The notes below the pieces were generated by a model. That model made no database searches and was not told the origin of the DNA. It saw nothing but the letters and a program-made list of their open reading frames with translations. Shown here piece by piece: positions 1 through 6,662 of a DNA stretch of 7,000 nucleotides. This DNA comes from Nitrosomonas europaea (GTDB taxonomy: Bacteria > Pseudomonadota > Gammaproteobacteria > Burkholderiales > Nitrosomonadaceae). Location: the NCBI RefSeq assembly GCF_900167395.1, contig NZ_FUWK01000064.1, positions 1-7,000 of the forward strand, given 5' to 3'. The position numbers were made by a program, and so were the translations under genes. The stretch's first letter is position 1; each line of letters begins with the position of its first letter.

Positions 1-278
1 TGGCACAAGCCGGTATTGAACCGTCTGTCGGCAGTCGCGGTGACAGTTACGATAATGCGCTGGCTGAAACGATCAATGGCCTGTACAAGGCTGAACTGAT
101 ACACAGGAGAGCTCCCTGGAAAACCAGGGCTGCTGTGGAGCTGGCAACTTTGGAATGGGTTGCCTGGTATAACCATCAACGCCTGCTTGGATCTATCGGG
201 TATATTCCTCCAGCTCAGGCTGAAGAAAACTACCGACAAACCCAGGATAATAAGACATTGATGGATATTTTACTTTAA
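1..278 (+). CDS. IS3-family transposase OrfB (DDE integrase domain), C-terminal 91 codons; 5' end lies outside the window
   Basis: Frame 3 is open from the window edge to TAA at 276-278. The translation AQAGIEPSVGSRGDSYDNALAETINGLYKAELIHRRAPWKT...WVAWYNHQRLLGSIGYIPPAQAEENYRQ matches the conserved C-terminal block of IS3-family OrfB, including the DNA..E glutamate region of the DDE triad and the WYN..R tail. Confidence 0.9.
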   Translation, partial: AQAGIEPSVGSRGDSYDNALAETINGLYKAELIHRRAPWKTRAAVELATLEWVAWYNHQRLLGSIGYIPPAQAEENYRQTQDNKTLMDILL

Positions 279-311
279 CCAAATAGCCTCCTCGATTGTC
301 GGGACGGTTCA
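1..311 (+). mobile_element. IS3-family insertion sequence, right-hand portion (partial)
   Basis: The transposase 3' end is followed by ccaaatagcctcctcgattgtcgggacggttca. Its reverse complement, TGAACCGTCCCGACAATCG..., has the TGAAC.. / ..GTTCA terminus typical of IS3-family inverted repeats. Putting the end at 311 is an inference, because the other IR is not in the window. This stretch is visibly more AT-rich than the flank. Confidence 0.6.
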
Positions 312-452
312 AGGCGCACTGAGCACGCTCACCAAGGAAGCCAACGAGCAGTCTCATCTGTAGCAACGTGGGCAGGTAGGATTCTTTCATCTCAAATCTC
401 ATCATTCGTTTGTTCTGCCGGCGCGACCGGCGCAGGCAGTGATATCCACTGT

Positions 453-1367
453 TTAGTCACAATCCGCTACCGCGCGGGCCGCATCCAAAGGCGCATACCC
501 TGGCGCCAGCACGGCGTTCTTGACGCCATACAAGGCCAAGTGGTCCTTGAGCCAAAGTCTGTACTCAGGCCCGCGAAGGCTATGGTCTGCGGAGCAGTCG
601 ACGCTCCACTTGCGCAGGATGTAGCCAGCAGTCGCTGCACGGAGCTTCATCTTCACCATGCCGCCGGTCATGCCGTAATCCATCTCCGCGATCTCGGGGC
701 GCGGTTGGTCCGGGTGCGGCACCAGCTCCAGCTCCACAATCCGCGTCCACTGGATGTCCTGGTCACTTTTTTCGTGGGGCAGGACGTGGCTGTCTTTCAG
801 CATCACGGAACGCTGCATGCGCGTGATGACAAAGTCCCGGAAATCCTTGCTGCGTCGATCGAAGGCGCGGACATGCCAGCGCAGGCCGTTGTCGATTAAC
901 GCAAACGGGACGATCTCGCGCTCAGTCTCGCCGCTCGACAAGGAGTGGTAGGTGACTTTCAGCGGGCGCTCCTGATGGATTGCCCGAGTAACACAAGCGA
1001 GCGTGTCGAGTCCTGGCTTTGTGAGTCTGGAAGGAATCTCACAAGTGATCCAGGACTTGAGGGCCGAAGGCTCGCCATCACCGAAACCCTGTGAGAGCCA
1101 CGCCAAGACCCGCTCTGCAGGGAAATCAAAGACTGGCGTGAATCCATCCGCGTAGCCGTACACCTTGTTCTTGGTGTCGTAATCCAGGTTGCCAGGGGCG
1201 AGATCCTTGTAGATTCCGATGTCCCGGGTTGCCGCTGCCGCCTGGATGCCAAAGCGCGACACCAGGTCTTGGCGGCGAATCTCTCCGATGAAGCGCAGGC
1301 GCAACTCGATAAACGCAAGTCGGTCGCGCTGGGGCTGGGTCAGGTCTGCAAGCTGTTCGTTGGACAT
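453..1367 (-). CDS. WYL-domain transcriptional regulator (N-terminal wHTH, central WYL domain, C-terminal extension), BrxR/CapW-like
   Basis: 304-aa ORF, ATG at 1365-1367 and TAA at 453-455. The N-terminus RLAFIELRLRFIGEIRRQDLVSRFGIQAAAATRDIGIYKDLAPGNLDYD resembles the wHTH of BrxR/CapW-type regulators. The WYL-type core is RPLKVTYHSLSSGETEREIVPFALIDNGLRWHVRAFDRRSKDFRDFVITRM (about aa 134-184). ORFs on the opposite strand inside it look like GC-driven shadows. Confidence 0.85.
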   Translation of the reverse strand: MSNEQLADLTQPQRDRLAFIELRLRFIGEIRRQDLVSRFGIQAAAATRDIGIYKDLAPGNLDYDTKNKVYGYADGFTPVFDFPAERVLAWLSQGFGDGEPSALKSWITCEIPSRLTKPGLDTLACVTRAIHQERPLKVTYHSLSSGETEREIVPFALIDNGLRWHVRAFDRRSKDFRDFVITRMQRSVMLKDSHVLPHEKSDQDIQWTRIVELELVPHPDQPRPEIAEMDYGMTGGMVKMKLRAATAGYILRKWSVDCSADHSLRGPEYRLWLKDHLALYGVKNAVLAPGYAPLDAARAVADCD

Positions 1368-1416
1368 CCTGGCTGCCGTTTCGGGTTAATGATCGCTAGT
1401 TGGTGCTCTTGCGGGT

Positions 1417-1445
1417 AGTATATGCCTCGCACGATAATATGTCGA
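1417..1445 (-). promoter_or_regulatory. Putative sigma70-type promoter of the WYL regulator gene
   Basis: On the minus strand: -35 TCGACA (complement of 1440-1445), 17-nt spacer, -10 TATACT (complement of 1417-1422). The -10 lies about 50 nt upstream of the ATG at 1367. Confidence 0.35.
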
Positions 1446-1479
1446 TGAATTGACGTTGCGCATCAGTCCATCGCATATT
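1436..1479. promoter_or_regulatory. Inverted repeat (candidate operator) in the divergent WYL / nuclease intergenic region
   Basis: AATATGTCGATG (1436-1447) and CATCGCATATT (1469-1479) are reverse complements apart from one extra T, with a 21-nt spacer. A third half-site-like ATATGC lies at 1420-1425. The left half overlaps the predicted -35 of the regulator gene. The right half overlaps the predicted -10 of the nuclease gene. Confidence 0.4.
1450..1479 (+). promoter_or_regulatory. Putative sigma70-type promoter of the small ORF / DUF3223-HNH gene
   Basis: -35 TTGACG (1450-1455), 18-nt spacer, -10 CATATT (1474-1479). Confidence 0.35.
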
Positions 1480-1499
1480 GTTACCGACAGAGGGCTACG

Positions 1500-1625
1500 A
1501 TGAGCGGAAGCCGATGGGGTCAGCCGGGCGTGCCCCACAAAGGACGGCCCTGCGTGGACGTCGTCGATCTGCGGGCGGACGCCGGGCTTGCTATTGCTGC
1601 GCCAGGAGAAATGAGAGATGGCTAA
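1500..1625 (+). CDS. Hypothetical 41-aa upstream small ORF, possibly translationally coupled to the nuclease gene
   Basis: ATG at 1500 is preceded by GAGGG (1490-1494) at 5-nt spacing. Translation: MSGSRWGQPGVPHKGRPCVDVVDLRADAGLAIAAPGEMRDG. Its TAA (1623-1625) overlaps the ATG at 1618 within ATGGCTAA. No recognisable family, so it could simply be a 5' UTR. Confidence 0.2.
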   Translation: MSGSRWGQPGVPHKGRPCVDVVDLRADAGLAIAAPGEMRDG

Positions 1626-2364
1626 ACCTGTCGTAATCGGCTCGCGGAGCTTCCGAACCCAGAGCAGTGCCCTCGACCACTATAAGGCGCTGCTTCACCG
1701 GTATCAGGACGGTCAGCGGATCGCCGACCCGGCTGACCACACAGACCTGGTGGCGCTCATCGAGCGTTTTGACCCGGTGCTCGATGCTGTTGGGGAGCCC
1801 GCAAAAGGTGCCGGCCAGATTGCTCACTTTGAGCGACGCCTGAATACAGGGATCGGCTGGAGCACGCCGGGGTTCTGGGTTGTTCGGCAGGACGGCACTG
1901 AAACCGACTTCTCGTACATCGATGCGGTCAAGGGCAGGCCGAAGGGGCGGTCCCAAGATTTCTACAACGCATGCCGGCAGGCGGTCGCACTCGACCTCGT
2001 CCTCGCCAAGAAGCAGGCGTTTGCCCAGTACGGCGATGATCAGGGCCGGGTTGAGTGTGAGTTAACCGGAAAGATGGTCACCATCGACGACGCACACCTT
2101 GACCACGCATGGCCGTACTTCTCGCACATGGTGAGTGGATTTCGGGCTGCCAGGGGTTGGTCGAGGGACATCCCGGACGGCATCGTTTCCACCCCGGCTG
2201 ACGGCCAGACCACGGCAACATTCCTGGACAGCGCTGTGACTGAGGCATTCCGAGCGTTCCACCATGACCAAGCGGTCCTTCGGGTTCTCAGCCGGGAAGC
2301 AAACCTACAGACCGCGAGTTCAGCCCGCCGGCCAAAGGTTGCACGGCCAGTCCGGCTAGCGTGA
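1618..2364 (+). CDS. DUF3223 (DCL-like) domain protein with a C-terminal HNH-like (beta-beta-alpha-Me) nuclease motif
   Basis: 248-aa ORF with GGAGA (1605-1609) 8 nt before the ATG. An in-frame TGA at 1612-1614 rules out a longer form. The N-terminal half, FRTQSSALDHYKALL...GAGQIAHFERRLNTGIGWSTPGFWVVRQDGTETDFSYIDAVKG, fits the DUF3223/DCL pattern (..F.V.R.DG...DFSY..). The C-terminal half, VECELTGKMVTIDDAHLDHAWPYF...FHHDQAVLRVLSREAN (aa 145-229, nt about 2050-2304), fits an HNH arrangement: Cys-x-x-x-Gly, then H-x-DH, then a distal Asn. Confidence 0.75.
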   Translation: MAKPVVIGSRSFRTQSSALDHYKALLHRYQDGQRIADPADHTDLVALIERFDPVLDAVGEPAKGAGQIAHFERRLNTGIGWSTPGFWVVRQDGTETDFSYIDAVKGRPKGRSQDFYNACRQAVALDLVLAKKQAFAQYGDDQGRVECELTGKMVTIDDAHLDHAWPYFSHMVSGFRAARGWSRDIPDGIVSTPADGQTTATFLDSAVTEAFRAFHHDQAVLRVLSREANLQTASSARRPKVARPVRLA

Positions 2365-2406
2365 CCCGCTCCGGTCGCCTGCGATCAGGCCCGCGTAGAC
2401 GTCTGG

Positions 2407-2446
2407 CGGACGCGGGTTCAATTCCTCAAATGGGAATCGAACTGAC
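2407..2446 (+). repeat. att-like core element, copy A: conserved flank plus 11-7-11 imperfect palindrome
   Basis: cggacgcg GGTTCAATTCC tcaaatg GGAATCGAACT gac. Arms are 2415-2425 and 2433-2443 (9/11 complementary), spacer 2426-2432. Outside the spacer, 28/33 positions are identical to copy B and 30/33 to copy C. Starts 43 bp after the nuclease gene stop. Confidence 0.8.
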
Positions 2447-2604
2447 GCCCTGTCTGATGCACTCGGCTGATGATCTCGGCCGGGCGGAACTGGTAGAACT
2501 GCAGGCAGCAAGGGCTGGAGTCCCCACCTTTCCGCAGCAGTGCGAAGCGGTTGTAAGGCGCTGAGTTACTGAGGTTTGGCGCAGGGTTCCACCCCACCCA
2601 GACC

Positions 2605-3008: not shown

Positions 3009-3311
3009 TCATGCAGGCAGTTTGGCTGCAAGCAGTTCGACCTTCTCGATATTGGGCGGAGAACTGAGCAAGGTCGCGGCGTTGGCCATCAAGGCCGCGG
3101 CGATCTGGCCGTTCAGATGTGCTTGGCGACCTGCCTCATCGGCAAAGGCATCGAACACACCAAACGTCGAAGGGCCAAACTTCAATGCGAACCAGGCAGT
3201 GGTGCCGGACTCGGCGTTGGCGAGCGGCAGTGCGCTGGCCAGGAAGTCGGCAAGCGCAGCCTCCTGGCCGGGTTTGGCTTCGAGGCGAACAAACAGGGCG
3301 AGCTTGGTCAT
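3009..3311 (-). CDS. Antibiotic-biosynthesis-monooxygenase (ABM, ferredoxin-like dimeric alpha-beta barrel) family protein
   Basis: 100-aa ORF, ATG at 3309-3311 with AAGGA 7-8 nt upstream, TGA at 3009-3011. MTKLALFVRLEAKPGQEAALADFL...TTAWFALKFGPSTFGVFDAFADEAGRQAHLNG has the size and pattern typical of ABM-domain proteins. It pairs divergently with a GlxA-type regulator, as is common for this family. Confidence 0.8.
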   Translation of the reverse strand: MTKLALFVRLEAKPGQEAALADFLASALPLANAESGTTAWFALKFGPSTFGVFDAFADEAGRQAHLNGQIAAALMANAATLLSSPPNIEKVELLAAKLPA

Positions 3312-3425
3312 ACTGTAATCCTTTGGGTAAATGGGTTAGGTGAAGGGATCGACGAGCCTGCAGTCTAAATCTTCATGACAGCCATCTCTATAGGCAATAA
3401 TGACAACTTTGATATCATTGTTGCC

Positions 3426-4388
3426 ATGAAACTCCACATCCTTGTTTGTGATGGCGTGTTTGATCTGGGGCTTGCGGCGCTCACTGACACAGTGGGCTTG
3501 GCCAATGCGATGTCGGGCTCGCTGCCACAGGCTCCCGCGCACATAGAGCTCACGCTGGTGGGCGTGCGGCGTCGCATCCGAACTGCGCAAGGCTTGACGG
3601 TCCCCGTGGTCACTGCGCGTGGTGTGCCGGAACCAGACGTCGTGCTCGTGCCCGCGTTTGGTGACAAGATGCCTGACACGCTCTCGGCTCGGCTCACACG
3701 CCCCGACGTGCCCGATGCGGTCGCCATGCTACAGCAGTGGTCCACCGCTGGCGCGCACCTTGGTGCCGCCTGCTCCGGTAGTTTCTTGCTTGCAGAGAGT
3801 GGCCTGCTTGATGGACATCGTGCGACGACGTCATGGTGGCTGGGGCCGATGTTTCGGCAGCGCTATCCGAACGTCACGCTGGACGAGTCACGCATGATCG
3901 TGAACTCGACACGCTTCACTACCGCGGGTGCCGCTTTAGCCCACGTCGACTTGGCCTTGCGCATCATCCGGGGGCGCAGTCCAGCGCTGGCGACCCTGGT
4001 GGCACGCTATCTGCTGGTCGAGACACGCAGTTCGCAAGCCGAGTTCGTGATTCCCGACCACCTTGCGCATGCCGACCCGATGGTGGAGCGCTTCGAGTGC
4101 TGGGCCAGACGTCGGCTCGCGAAGGGGTTCTCGCTGGCCGAGGCGGCCAGCGCCGCGGGCACAAGCGAGCGCACCTTGGCGCGGCGGCTGCAAAGCGTTT
4201 TGGGCAAGACACCGCTGTCGTATTTCCAGGATCTGCGCGTGGAGCATGCCGTGCATCTCTTGCGCACCGGAAACGCGAGCGTCGACCAAGTCGCCGCACA
4301 GGTCGGGTACTCGGATGGGGTGACCCTGCGGGCCCTGTTGCGCCGCAAGCTGGGCCGGAGTGTCAGAGAGTTGCGACGCGGTGGATGA
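3426..4388 (+). CDS. GlxA-family AraC-type transcriptional regulator (N-terminal DJ-1/PfpI-like domain, C-terminal AraC HTH)
   Basis: The ORF is open from 3375, but the family-typical N-terminus MKLHILVCDGVFDLGLAALTDTVGLANA starts at the ATG at 3426. The DJ-1-like nucleophile-elbow region is GAACSGSFLLAESGLLDGHRATTSWW. The C-terminal AraC HTH is SLAEAASAAGTSERTLARRLQSVLGKTPLSYFQDLRVEHAVHLLRTGNASVDQVAAQVGYSDGVTLRALLRRKLG. Start-codon choice (3375 vs 3426) is uncertain. Confidence 0.85.
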   Translation: MKLHILVCDGVFDLGLAALTDTVGLANAMSGSLPQAPAHIELTLVGVRRRIRTAQGLTVPVVTARGVPEPDVVLVPAFGDKMPDTLSARLTRPDVPDAVAMLQQWSTAGAHLGAACSGSFLLAESGLLDGHRATTSWWLGPMFRQRYPNVTLDESRMIVNSTRFTTAGAALAHVDLALRIIRGRSPALATLVARYLLVETRSSQAEFVIPDHLAHADPMVERFECWARRRLAKGFSLAEAASAAGTSERTLARRLQSVLGKTPLSYFQDLRVEHAVHLLRTGNASVDQVAAQVGYSDGVTLRALLRRKLGRSVRELRRGG

Positions 4389-4649
4389 CCAGAGGCGTTT
4401 GGTGTATGTACGGCTGGAGACCGCCGGGAAACTGACGCAGGCCAAACGGCGCATTTGGACCTGACAAAACTACTGCCCGCCACGGCGCGCAAGCTCCAGT
4501 TTGACCCCGGACAAAGTTTTGCTGGCAATGTCGTGGTTGAGCAAATCAATACCTTGATTGAGCAACGCTGTGCACTGACGATTCGGCGGCTCACCGACCC
4601 CGCCGCCGACAATGACGCAGCCGCCGAGCCCACCGTTTGAACTACCGTG

Positions 4650-4689
4650 CGGACACGGGTTCGATTCAGGGTTTGGGAATTGAACCGAC
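4650..4689 (+). repeat. att-like core element, copy B
   Basis: cggacacg GGTTCGATTCA gggtttg GGAATTGAACC gac. Arms are 4658-4668 and 4676-4686 (9/11 complementary), spacer 4669-4675. Same orientation as copies A and C. Confidence 0.8.
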
Positions 4690-4756
4690 ATCCCATCGCA
4701 GACGAGTTTGATGCCCGTTTCCGGCGACTGAATCGCCCAGATGGCCGGCGGTGCCG

Positions 4757-4818
4757 CCGACGTTGCAAATCGTCGGTACTTGTCGATATCTACCGACGAA
4801 TCGGAACATTTCTCAGCT
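4757..4818 (+). repeat. Conserved box, copy B (CCGAC / GTCGGTA / TACCGAC arrangement)
   Basis: ccgac gttgcaaatc gtcggta(4772-4778) cttgtcgatatc taccgac(4791-4797) gaatcggaacatttctcagct. GTCGGTA and the downstream TACCGAC form a perfect 7-bp inverted repeat with a 12-nt spacer. The box ends exactly at the stop codon (complement of 4813-4815) and last Ser codon of the HTH gene. Confidence 0.75.
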
Positions 4819-5025
4819 GACACTGACCTGGGCCACCACGGTCTTGGTCGAGGTCGCCAGGCACGACTCCTCGTATGCCTCAATGTCGGCCTGCCGGTAG
4901 AGCACGCGCCCGCAGAGCTTCAGAAACTTGGGGCCGATCCCCGCGCTGCGCCAGCGCTCCAGGGTGGCCTCACTGATACTCCAGCGGGCAGCGAGTTGTT
5001 TTTGATTGAGGTGAGCGACTTCCAT
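4813..5025 (-). CDS. Excisionase/AlpA/MerR-like helix-turn-helix DNA-binding protein (about 70 aa)
   Basis: MEVAHLNQKQLAARWSISEATLERWRSAGIGPKFLKLCGRVLYRQADIEAYEE matches the excisionase-family HTH pattern (L...q.A..l.vS..Tl.rWr..G.gP.f.k.G..v.Y...di..w). The ATG at 5023-5025 is preceded by GGAGA at 5-nt spacing. The ORF track's longer form (to 5088) needs a TTG start and has no RBS. Confidence 0.75.
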   Translation of the reverse strand: MEVAHLNQKQLAARWSISEATLERWRSAGIGPKFLKLCGRVLYRQADIEAYEESCLATSTKTVVAQVSVS

Positions 5026-5108
5026 CTTGGTCTCCGTCCGAACGAGTTGGCAGGAGTCCATGAGGGCGCTGTTCCGGCCGCGAGCCAAGGCAATTCCAGG
5101 AAGCGCCG

Positions 5109-6233
5109 CTACTCGGGCAGATCATTCAGCTCGTAGCTGGTGCTACGCCCGCCGGCATCCGATTTGCGCAGCACGCCCCGCGTCAGCAGATCGTTGATGT
5201 CGCGCAGTGCCGTGTCCGGCGAGCATTTGGCGATGGCCGCCCACTTGCTGCTGGTGAGCTTGCCCTCGAAACCATCGAGCAGCTTGTTCAGCAATTTCAC
5301 CTGCCGCTCGTTCAACGGGGTCGTCGCCCATCGCTGCCAGAACCGCGCTTTCGTCAGGACAGCGTCCAGCGTGTGCTGGGCCTGGTCGACGGCGCGATGA
5401 AGCGTGTCGAGGAACCACGCAAGCCACTCGGTGACATCCATCGACCGCTTCTGCGTCCTCTCCAGGATGTCGTAGTAAGCCTTGCGCTCGCGCTGGATCT
5501 GCGCCGACAAACTGTAGAAGCGTTGCGGGCTGCCATCGGCACGCGCCAGCAGCAGATCGCCAATGGCCCGGGCGATACGGCCATTGCCATCATCGAATGG
5601 GTGCAGAGTGACGAACCACAGATGGCCAAGGCCTGCCTTGAGCAGTGGCGGTTCGTTTAATGTGCCATTCAGCCAGTCGAGGAAGCGGCTGGTTTCGGTC
5701 TCGAGGCGATCGGCCGGCGGTGCTTCGAAATGCACCCGCTGGCGGCCGATGGGTCCGGACACCACCTGCATCGGGCCGGTGGCATCGTCGCGCCAGCCGC
5801 CGACGTTGATCTTGGAGAGCCCAGAATAGCCGGTAGGAAACAGTGCGGCATGCCAGCCGAACAGACGCTCACGCGACACCAGTGCCTGGCAGTTGGCGGT
5901 GGCATCGAGCACCATCTCGACCACGCCTTCGACATGCCGATCGACCGGAGCGAGCGCGCCGATGTCAACGCCCAACCTGCGGGCGATGGACGAGCGCACG
6001 GATTCAACGTTGAGCTGCTCGCCTTCGATCTCGCTGGTCTTGACCACGTCCTCGGTGAGCGCCGCGAGACTCGCTTGGTCACGCAAGGCCATGCCGACGT
6101 CAGCCAGACGCCCCATCAAGAGCCCTTGGGCACGACTGACCTCAGCCATGGGCTCGGCCAGCGCCGCCAGGTCGAAGCGCCAGTTTGGCCAGTCACTGGC
6201 CTGCCAGATGTATTTGTATTCGCCGCTATTCAT
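5109..6233 (-). CDS. Fic-family protein (AMPylase/adenylyltransferase-type), class II, SoFic-like architecture (DUF4172-like N-terminus, Fic core, C-terminal wHTH)
   Basis: 374-aa ORF. The canonical Fic motif HPFDDGNGRIAR is at aa 211-222 (nt 5568-5603). The intramolecular inhibitory motif TSEIEG, fitting (S/T)xxxE(G/N), is at aa 66-71 (nt 6021-6038). The N-terminus YIWQASDWPNWRFD is typical of DUF4172. The C-terminal segment LNERQVKLLNKLLDGFEGKLTSSKWAAIAKCSPDTALRDINDLLTRGVL looks like a winged helix. Confidence 0.95.
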   Translation of the reverse strand: MNSGEYKYIWQASDWPNWRFDLAALAEPMAEVSRAQGLLMGRLADVGMALRDQASLAALTEDVVKTSEIEGEQLNVESVRSSIARRLGVDIGALAPVDRHVEGVVEMVLDATANCQALVSRERLFGWHAALFPTGYSGLSKINVGGWRDDATGPMQVVSGPIGRQRVHFEAPPADRLETETSRFLDWLNGTLNEPPLLKAGLGHLWFVTLHPFDDGNGRIARAIGDLLLARADGSPQRFYSLSAQIQRERKAYYDILERTQKRSMDVTEWLAWFLDTLHRAVDQAQHTLDAVLTKARFWQRWATTPLNERQVKLLNKLLDGFEGKLTSSKWAAIAKCSPDTALRDINDLLTRGVLRKSDAGGRSTSYELNDLPE

Positions 6234-6373: not shown

Positions 6374-6413
6374 CGGACGCGGGTTCAGTTCCCGTTTCGG
6401 GAATTGAACTGGC
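6374..6413 (+). repeat. att-like core element, copy C
   Basis: cggacgcg GGTTCAGTTCC cgtttcg GGAATTGAACT ggc. Arms are 6382-6392 and 6400-6410 (9/11 complementary), spacer 6393-6399. Downstream, 6422-6450 (gcagacgaggttgaggccgtattccgact) is also similar to the sequence following copy B (4698-4729). Confidence 0.8.
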
Positions 6414-6510: not shown

Positions 6511-6560
6511 TTCGCTCCGGTTCGCACTGGTTCGCAGCAACCCGCAGCGCTTCGATTCCG
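6511..6560. repeat. Five tandem degenerate 10-mers (TTCGCnnnGG type)
   Basis: ttcgctccgg / ttcgcactgg / ttcgcagcaa / cccgcagcgc / ttcgattccg fall exactly in 10-bp register from 6511. The motif core YCGCA resembles the phased CCGCA array at 2605-2660. Confidence 0.5.
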
Positions 6561-6608
6561 TACTTTCAATAGTCGTTTGATGCGGGGTACCACCCCACCA
6601 CCAATACC

Positions 6609-6641
6609 AAAAAACCCAACCGATGAAGGTTGGGTTTTTTT
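6609..6641. terminator. Rho-independent terminator, bidirectional in form
   Basis: aaaaaacccaacc gatgaa ggttgggttttttt. The 9-bp GC-containing stem is 6613-6621 / 6628-6636, with a 6-nt loop. The stem-plus-run of 7 T (6635-6641) is mirrored by a run of 6 A upstream (6609-6614). Confidence 0.8.
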
Positions 6642-6662
6642 CTGTTTGAAATCCTTACTGTA

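Follow-up and report, generated by a model that had tools for sequence, protein, structure and literature searches.

A 7,000-nucleotide (nt) stretch of Nitrosomonas europaea DNA (positions 1 to 7,000 of contig NZ_FUWK01000064.1, assembly GCF_900167395.1; hereafter the window) carries a divergent gene pair, in which a 304-amino-acid (aa) repressor of the BrxR family is encoded at 453-1367 on the minus strand and a 248-aa protein of the DCL/HamC family (hereafter DCL) at 1618-2364 on the plus strand. We propose, with a rough probability of 0.55, that this locus is the regulatory hinge of a mobile island, at which the BrxR repressor stands back to back with a decayed accessory operon and DCL is an autonomous, portable add-on. 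Three features suggest the autonomy of DCL: the gene ends at least 10 kinds of defence operon that are unrelated to one another, its similarity follows neither cargo nor regulator, and it is under purifying selection when it stands alone. The window is a new configuration of known parts, namely a BrxR-family regulator and a HamC/DCL accessory outside Hachiman. A preliminary description of this DNA had placed both open reading frames (ORFs) at exactly these coordinates and had presented the pair as a candidate inducible nuclease or defence module.

DCL proved to be a member of a catalogued family. It matches the PADLOC profile PDLC00202 (HamC2/HamC) over its length (E = 1e-85, residues 1-247 against profile positions 1-244 of 245) and its homologues are annotated "DCL family protein" by NCBI, so that the protein, which the preliminary description had not recognised as part of a named defence system, belongs to a named family; no NCBIfam model matches either the 304-aa or the 248-aa protein. 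The DUF3223 fusion noticed earlier was confirmed by a Pfam match at aa 23-104 (9.4e-11, 42.6 bits against a cutoff of 21 bits) and by the fold of PDB entry 2K0M, which the N-terminal domain matches in sequence (E = 3.6e-6) and by Foldseek (4.8e-6, template modelling (TM) score 0.77 on the target). In the AlphaFold2 model, whose predicted local distance difference test score (pLDDT) is 89.3 for the whole protein and 88.6 for a dedicated model of the C-terminal domain, an N-terminal DUF3223 domain (about aa 1-105) is followed by a C-terminal domain (aa 106-248). The family counts 2,923 representatives at 50% identity (E <= 1e-3), most of them 215-250 aa long with both domains, and has phage-encoded relatives (phrog_28887, 4e-21). 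DUF3223 proteins were reported beside 3.8% of Hachiman systems and named HamC (Payne et al. 2021, PMC8565338). The window lacks HamA (DUF1837) and the HamB helicase, as do the 33 close genome loci examined, and membership of Hachiman type II was ruled out, there being no adjacent HamA or HamB. Two alphaproteobacterial plasmid homologues (L046 and L047) show the order DUF1837, DEAD/DEAH helicase and DCL with overlapping stop and start codons.

The comparison set comprised about 60 related loci (cited by L numbers), namely 33 genome loci that hold close relatives, another 12 places in metagenomes or genomes, plasmids and IMG/VR contigs. Across these loci, DCL is the last, sometimes the first, gene of many kinds of defence operon, among them Hachiman, CBASS, AbiE, HerA-type, Wadjet and others. 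The cargo between brxR and DCL, or beside DCL, consists of a patatin with a CD-NTase (CBASS), AbiEi with AbiEii, a Macro-domain protein, a NurA-like 370-aa protein with HerA, a 646-aa ADP-ribosylglycohydrolase fusion with a 169-aa protein, JetABCD (Wadjet) with the 169-aa protein, HsdR, or HerA with CBASS. Among distant homologues, DCL precedes nSTAND3, Mrr-nSTAND3, DUF4917, a 1,448-aa protein or a Metallophos-AAA protein. Every sampled context is a defence operon, an island or a mobile element, which bears out the suspected link of the family to defence islands. A WYL gene is not its usual neighbour: of the first 37 loci, 12 have a homologue of the window WYL gene upstream of DCL and divergent from it, and just three of these (L007, L008 and L015) have it immediately beside DCL.

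Moreover, the similarity of DCL tracks neither cargo nor regulator. The window DCL is 95% identical to those of L005 and L006, which carry HerA cargo and whose WYL protein is only 76% identical, and the window WYL protein is 97-98% identical to those of L007 and L061, whose DCL is 79-92% identical. Nearly the same DCL (dN, the nonsynonymous divergence, 0.02) occurs in L019 with ADP-ribosylglycohydrolase cargo and in L032 with CBASS cargo. The junction just upstream of DCL, which includes the ribosome-binding site GGAGAA-N7-ATG and the final codons of the gene before it, is common to operons that end in the 169-aa gene and to those that end in HerA. These data argue that DCL does not co-evolve with a specific partner, and the discordant patterns indicate that WYL and DCL are not a co-evolving pair. 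The DCL reading frame of the window is intact, with the ribosome-binding site conserved, and its ratio of nonsynonymous to synonymous change (dN/dS) is 0.11-0.16 within the cargo-less lineage formed by the window and the other reduced loci, and 0.09-0.12 overall.

Some of the cargo genes may be of interest in their own right. A protein of 625-646 aa (L019:381-2321, L016:3154-5031, L025 and L028) joins an unknown N-terminal region of about 290 aa to an ADP-ribosylglycohydrolase domain; it is divergent from brxR, and in every case the next genes are the 169-aa (or a 249-aa) gene and DCL. Its first 40 or so residues recur in the patatin effector of CBASS in L034 and L050. The protein is absent from PADLOC, and we regard it as a candidate for an uncharacterised defence effector. 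In L006 (6707-9945), L018 and L005, a 370-380-aa protein with a weak NurA match (0.014) and a 704-aa HerA-type ATPase lie between brxR and DCL; only the HerA half is recognised by PADLOC, and the two may form an undescribed defence pair of the NurA-HerA type. The 1260-aa protein of L010, the 1112-aa protein of L014 and the 171-aa, 169-aa and 193-aa neighbours have no match in PADLOC or Pfam.

The window itself is laid out as follows.

1..311, plus strand: right end of an insertion sequence (IS) of the IS3 family, transposase C-terminus readable at 3-278 (Pfam rve_3, 2.3e-13 on 3-257)
313..405, minus strand: 5' fragment (about 31 codons) of a 171-aa post-brxR gene (88% match to L007)
453..1367, minus strand: BrxR-family repressor, 304 aa, with winged helix-turn-helix (wHTH), WYL and WCX domains (PDB 7QFZ, Pfam WYL)
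1368..1499, no strand assigned: divergent promoter and candidate operator region (promoter scan, repeat, conservation)
1500..1625, plus strand: 41-codon remnant of the 169-aa Zn-ribbon/AP2-like gene (tblastn, junctions)
1618..2364, plus strand: DCL/HamC-family protein, 248 aa (PADLOC PDLC00202, Pfam DUF3223)
2406..2444, plus strand: site like the T-arm of transfer-messenger RNA (tmRNA), GCGGACGCGGGTTCAATTCC, then a 10-base-pair (bp) inverted repeat (19/20 match to the L029 T-arm)
2512..2598, plus strand: near-invariant, hairpin-forming block of about 87 nt, end of the conserved element (16-locus alignment)

The space between the two genes, read earlier as support for co-regulation, is not purely regulatory. 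Positions 1500-1625 are what is left of the 169-aa gene: residues 1-31 of the 169-aa protein match 1500-1592 in a tblastn search (77% identity, 87% at the nucleotide level), and the remnant forms a 41-codon ORF whose stop overlaps the DCL start. The loci with the most similar WYL protein (L056, L061 and L062, 98.4% identity) have the order BrxC-BrxB-BrxA-171aa-WYL, the same 133-nt spacer, an intact 169-aa gene and DCL. Hence an internal deletion removed about 384 nt of the 169-aa gene in the lineage to which the window, L007, L008, L015 and L059 belong. Changes in the remnant among close relatives comprise 6 nonsynonymous and 0 synonymous ones, and its evolution is relaxed. The ancestral layout was a BREX system led by brxR on one side and the 169-aa gene with DCL on the other, and the tight adjacency in the window is a product of the deletion. 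Related islands hold whole defence systems between brxR and DCL.

These observations bear on the idea of a self-contained inducible module, in which the WYL protein would repress a 248-aa HNH nuclease of the beta-beta-alpha-Me type through an inverted repeat. We now consider this idea unlikely as a whole. The direct divergent pairing recurs (L007, L008, L015 and L055/L059) and DCL is under purifying selection, both of which speak for a unit of two genes, and that part of the description stands. However, the pairing arose by deletion of the 169-aa gene and joins genes with discordant similarities, and most DCL loci lack the WYL gene, which on its own strand heads BREX. The model is thus weakened: co-regulation of the two genes is quite plausible, and DCL may function by itself.

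In the 169-aa protein, a CxxC...CxC motif is accompanied by a C-terminal motif that resembles AP2; its match to Pfam AP2 reaches only E = 3.2, and one source calls a homologue "AP2 domain-containing protein". A strict pair of the 169-aa gene and DCL was rejected, as the 169-aa gene occurs without DCL in Cupriavidus, in a cyanobacterium and in another mobile element; the 169-aa gene is itself promiscuous. In the Cupriavidus loci L066/L067 (5435-12510), a BrxR-divergent operon encodes an HD-domain protein, the 169-aa protein, a 1,594-aa SACS/NOV_C protein and a NERD-UvrD helicase, with the layout of the window's island, other cargo and no DCL.

The assignment of the WYL protein to the BrxR/CapW type was confirmed by full-length homology to solved structures. 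It matches BrxR from the E. fergusonii plasmid pEFER (PDB 7QFZ, E = 1.6e-84, residues 3-292), CapW (7TB5, 1e-32) and Acinetobacter BrxR (7T8K, 1.4e-21), and Pfam WYL at aa 122-186 (2e-13). Its dN/dS against the orthologues of the other cargo-less loci is 0.03. In related loci, brxR is the first gene of a co-directional defence operon. The order is WYL-171aa-BrxA-BrxB-BrxC in L007, L015, L059, L061 and L062, and orthologues 97-98% identical to the window BrxR head these genes; elsewhere the leftward operon contains BrxC (L032), a type I methyltransferase (L006), PbeA/PbeC (L022) or PsyrT (L034 and L036). Gene order accordingly suggests that the window BrxR primarily targets the leftward operon that it heads, a BREX operon in the closest relatives.

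In the window, this leftward operon has been interrupted or displaced. Homology to L007 and L015, two relatives that carry BREX, begins only at about 312, the edge of the IS3 element, and an ORF at 193-405 continues into that element. Positions 312-452 match L007 8695-8835 at 88%; therefore, the 171-aa gene starts at 405 and is cut by IS3 after about 31 codons. The intact 171-aa gene (L007:8273-8788, minus strand) is inserted between brxR and brxA and is 91-95% conserved in L059, L061 and L062. Its product has no match in Pfam, PADLOC or PHROGs, and it is an unannotated BREX-associated gene.

Two promoters are predicted in the divergent region, one leftward (-35 at 1440-1445, -10 at 1417-1422) and one rightward (-35 at 1450-1455, -10 at 1474-1479); the scan returned 3 promoter-like sites against 0.3 expected. 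The inverted repeat of the preliminary description is present: its arms, AATATG(T)CGATG (1436-1447) and CATCGCATATT (1469-1479), pair with one bulged base, were matched by 0 of 200 dinucleotide shuffles of the spacer, and overlap the leftward predicted -35 and the rightward predicted -10. Such a non-random repeat across both predicted promoters favours a module operator, whereas its poor retention in relatives speaks against one. Of the eight syntenic loci, the window has 11/11 arm positions, L056, L061 and L062 (the loci with the WYL protein most like the window's) have 10/11, and the remaining four have 8/11 (L059) or 6/11 (L007, L008 and L015). A GTCGAT...ATCGC core is retained in all eight, the leader at 1368-1416 is almost invariant among them, and about 130 nt beside the WYL start, including the regulator's predicted -10, are conserved across loci of differing cargo.

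Characterised BrxR operators are inverted repeats of 10-11 bp with a 5-bp spacer, located between the -10 and the start codon (PMC9122601). The single strong repeat of the window differs in that its spacer is 21 nt and it spans two -35/-10 boxes; no BrxR-type repeat with a 5-bp spacer was found in 1368-1416. Judged by its sequence and position, the repeat is a reasonable, if atypical, operator candidate. The claim of shared regulation is upheld as regards the compact divergent promoter region and weakened by the retention of the repeat at only 6-8 of 11 positions in four syntenic loci and by its atypical geometry.

We suggest the following working model. BrxR would regulate its own expression and head a leftward defence operon, which is broken here by IS3. 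CapW senses single-stranded DNA (ssDNA) and is released from DNA in a ligand-dependent manner (PMC11662680); by analogy, BrxR may hold the divergent promoters off until a signal of damage or infection such as ssDNA binds, and then leave the DNA. The rightward unit would once have been a small accessory operon of the 169-aa Zn-ribbon/AP2-like protein and DCL, with DCL riding on the promoter and induction logic of its host operon. The window represents a reduced state, in which BREX is cut, cargo is absent, the 169-aa gene is deleted and DCL is kept under maintained selection.

The biochemical role of DCL can be approached through its two domains. DUF3223 is required for the tRNA-chaperone-like activity of the Tetrahymena La protein Mlp1, and in DCL this domain is probably a module for interaction with nucleic acid or RNA. 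In the C-terminal domain, C147 and N229 are invariant and H160, D162, H163 and P166 nearly so among 31 homologues down to 51% identity; H215, C119, R120, K131 and R222 are conserved as well. The invariant Cys, His, Asp and Asn suggest a metal site. Taking these residues together with the role of Mlp1, we infer that DCL is most likely a metal-dependent factor that binds or processes nucleic acid.

The call of an HNH nuclease started from the string C...H-x-D-H-x-x-P...N-L, which we take to resemble superficially the HNH pattern CxxC...DH..P...NL. The residues of the proposed motif (C147, H160, D162, H163 and N229) exist and are conserved, but neither profile nor fold supports their identity as HNH residues. 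The isolated C-terminal region (aa 106-248 or aa 143-248) has no Pfam match at E <= 10, and a 23-sequence profile found no HNH protein among PDB sequences. Against PDB structures, Foldseek returned only 2K0M for the whole-protein model, through the N-terminal domain, and a best E of 2.5, with no HNH protein, for the C-terminal model. Moreover, no His or Asn is conserved about 8-10 residues past N229 in the 31 homologues, H215 preceding N229, and in the model, by DSSP, the HLDH strand runs directly into a helix, with no second strand as in a His-Me finger. In the BFVD viral library, the only significant neighbours were three proteins from cyanophages or Caudovirales, all of them uncharacterised (E = 3e-6 to 1.4e-5, TM 0.60-0.70). 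Several HNH, HNHc and NinG proteins among the viral matches favour the nuclease; they are sub-threshold (E = 0.3-5) with short cores, examples among them aligning 36-37 columns at a root-mean-square deviation of 2.1-3.2 with E = 3-5. These searches having failed, we regard the fold of the C-terminal domain as uncharacterised, with a metal site or active site probably present, and the HNH assignment as a weak possibility.

A conserved element follows DCL. The site GCGGACGCGGGTTCAATTCC lies about 44 nt past the DCL stop and is succeeded by a 10-bp inverted repeat with a 7-nt spacer (2416-2425 / 2433-2442), about 60 variable nt and the 87-nt block; in an alignment of 16 loci, homology ends at ...CCACCCCACCACCA in most. 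The T-arm-like site lies after DCL in 15 other loci besides the window. Additionally, the window contains three direct copies of the element (2406-2444, 4648-4687 and 6374-6411, with extensions at 2512-2598, 4728-4812 and 6520-6606), each opening with a 19-20-nt T-arm match and continuing into a 10-bp inverted repeat with a 7-nt spacer. The copies bracket three blocks, namely WYL with DCL, an ABM-like monooxygenase with an AraC-type regulator, and HTH_17 with Fic.

Even across phyla, the identity of orthologous copies is 90-98%, which far exceeds that of the neighbouring gene at synonymous sites. When the window is compared with L019, identity is 74% for DCL (49% at third codon positions) and 29% for the 42 nt past its stop, which are unrelated, whereas it is 91% for the site and 90% for the block; across DCL clades, the site is 91-98% and the block 90-97% identical. 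Conservation of the element is therefore independent of that of the gene. In L029, an intact tmRNA precedes a truncated DCL and the element by 4.6 kb, and L003 has a tmRNA-type 3' end downstream of DCL. Past the element, L015 and L018 have housekeeping genes, and in L011 the 169-aa gene and DCL have gyrB upstream of them; DCL thus stands at an island edge. The copies may be attachment-site (att) type remnants of serial integration at ssrA, which is the simplest reading, or may be a cassette recombination site.

The position of the element raises the question of whether DCL, alone or together with the 169-aa protein, works for the mobile element itself, in an island-end or homing-type function at a tmRNA-like recombination site, such as aid to integration, excision or the exchange of cassettes, with the link to defence as a by-product of defence genes gathering at that end. 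The near-constant site after DCL, the island-edge position, the tmRNA of L029 and the tmRNA-type 3' end of L003 are consistent with such a role, as are IMG/VR contigs that carry DCL within a few kb of their ends, 5'-truncated DCL copies that retain the 3' end and the site, the AP2-like motif of the 169-aa protein and the phage relatives of the DCL C-terminal domain. However, the element is conserved independently of DCL and follows the Fic and AraC/ABM cassettes just as well, distant DCL genes are coupled to HamAB, AAA ATPases or nSTAND3 with no site detected, and no recombinase is consistently adjacent (none lies beside the repeat-delimited cassettes of L029 or L023). We consider this role quite improbable.

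A more speculative view, of which we are equally doubtful, combines the site with the domain. DCL/HamC, sometimes with the 169-aa protein, would be an autonomous unit with an undescribed metal-binding fold shared with cyanophage proteins, carried on the 3' end of at least 10 mechanistically unrelated kinds of defence operon. Its target would be a universal nucleic acid resembling tRNA or tmRNA, and its role that of a general sensor or effector of infection or that of a cassette-swap factor at T-arm-like sites. Such a target is conceivable because DUF3223 is tRNA-chaperone-like in a ciliate La protein and a T-arm mimic almost always follows the gene.

The element was also considered as a structured RNA. 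This reading of the 234-nt candidate was not supported: RNAalifold predicts a hairpin in the block, all of whose predicted pairs are invariant, with a covariation term of -1.2 kcal/mol and thus no covariation support, ARAGORN found no tRNA or tmRNA in the window, and Rfam gave no family match there. In L019 and L021, Rfam reports a local tmRNA match of 17 bits against a gathering score of 47 bits. The third copy ends ...GGGGTACCACCCCACCACCA and is directly followed by a rho-independent terminator, AAAAAACCCAACC-GATGA-AGGTTGGGTTTTTTT (about 6607-6650), so that 6520-6650 resembles the 3' end of an RNA gene; its acceptor-like end is without the G3:U pair required for tmRNA.

Beyond the first block, the preliminary description had noted a context flanked by IS elements and adjacent to Fic, which was upheld by the IS3-type rve_3 tail and by a DUF4172-Fic gene at 5109-6233 (Pfam). 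The latter forms a two-gene module with an HTH_17 gene (AlpA- or excisionase-like, 4813-5088, minus strand), the whole spanning 4813-6233 on the minus strand. The Fic protein matches PADLOC SoFic at 3.4e-41, well under the NCBIfam equivalog cutoff, and the cassette with the same flanking elements is present in L023 and L029. At 3009-4388, a divergent pair of a 100-aa ABM-like monooxygenase (weak Pfam match, 0.026) and a DJ-1/PfpI-AraC regulator of the GlxA type is a separate cassette between two element copies; it is metabolic or stress cargo, not defence. A repeat of about 50 nt (2776-2829 and 4760-4812, 89-95% identity) holds an inverted repeat resembling GTCGGTAC...GTACCGAC (4762-4778 / 4791-4807). 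Its second copy lies directly upstream of the HTH_17 gene, and the repeat may serve the HTH_17-Fic module as its operator or may belong to a cassette boundary.

Given this history of insertion and loss, the pair could be inert debris of an island dismantled by IS elements and deletions, with neither DCL nor WYL of use here. The IS3 element truncates the first gene after brxR, the 169-aa gene is down to 41 codons, a second IS begins at about 6759, and many truncated DCL copies are found elsewhere. However, both ORFs are intact with the DCL ribosome-binding site conserved, the low dN/dS values of DCL and WYL hold between the window and the other cargo-less loci, and the reduced arrangement persists across taxonomically distant assemblies. 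We therefore regard debris as very unlikely.

For the proposed regulatory hinge with an autonomous DCL, several points weigh on the other side. The function of HamC is stated as unknown in the literature (PMC8565338; repeated in PMC11914072), and the call of a metal-dependent nucleic-acid enzyme draws on residue conservation only, in a C-terminal fold without a characterised relative. Of the DCL copies in the 33 genome loci, at least nine carry a truncation or a frameshift; the gene can thus often be dispensed with, and where DCL overlaps stop and start codons with HamB or AAA ATPases it could work with those neighbours. The candidate operator is only partly conserved and unlike known BrxR operators, and promoter geometry alone is what suggests that BrxR co-regulates DCL.

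With these points in view, the best-supported part of our proposal is the plan of the island, wherein a conserved regulator is followed by variable cargo and a conserved terminal accessory beside an att-like site. Defence catalogues list HamC only as a third, optional Hachiman gene. It is recast here as a separate module, apparently a promiscuous rider and not a Hachiman-specific subunit; its presence alone is poor ground for scoring "Hachiman type II". The plan may also be useful for mining defence genes, with the regulator at one end, the accessory and tmRNA-like site at the other, and swappable cargo between them. Among the genes to consider are those of the NurA-like 370-aa protein that pairs with HerA, of the 646-aa ADP-ribosylglycohydrolase fusion and of the proteins of 169 and 171 aa.

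Each part of the window can be set beside a known system. From HNH and His-Me finger nucleases, DCL differs in having no second Cys of the CxxC, in a gap of about 50 residues between DH and N, and, in the model, in a C-terminal order of secondary structure that is not beta-beta-alpha. With the eukaryotic DUF3223/DCL proteins (plant DCL, the C-terminus of Pol IV/V and Mlp1) it shares the N-terminal 105 or so residues that match Pfam DUF3223; those proteins have roles in ribosomal, transfer and small RNA biology, whereas bacterial DCL has an added C-terminal domain and its home in defence islands. The regulator is like the BrxR/CapW family (7QFZ, 7T8K, 7TB5 and 9C5G) in full-length homology and wHTH-WYL-WCX architecture, and its relatives head BREX and other defence operons; as with CapW, related brxR genes are divergent to CBASS in L032, L034 and L050. 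Finally, DCL and the HamC of Hachiman type II are of the same family and the same two-domain length class and share the end-of-operon position, whereas the partners of the window's DCL and its relatives are BrxR, CBASS, AbiE, HerA-type systems, Wadjet and others, or nothing.

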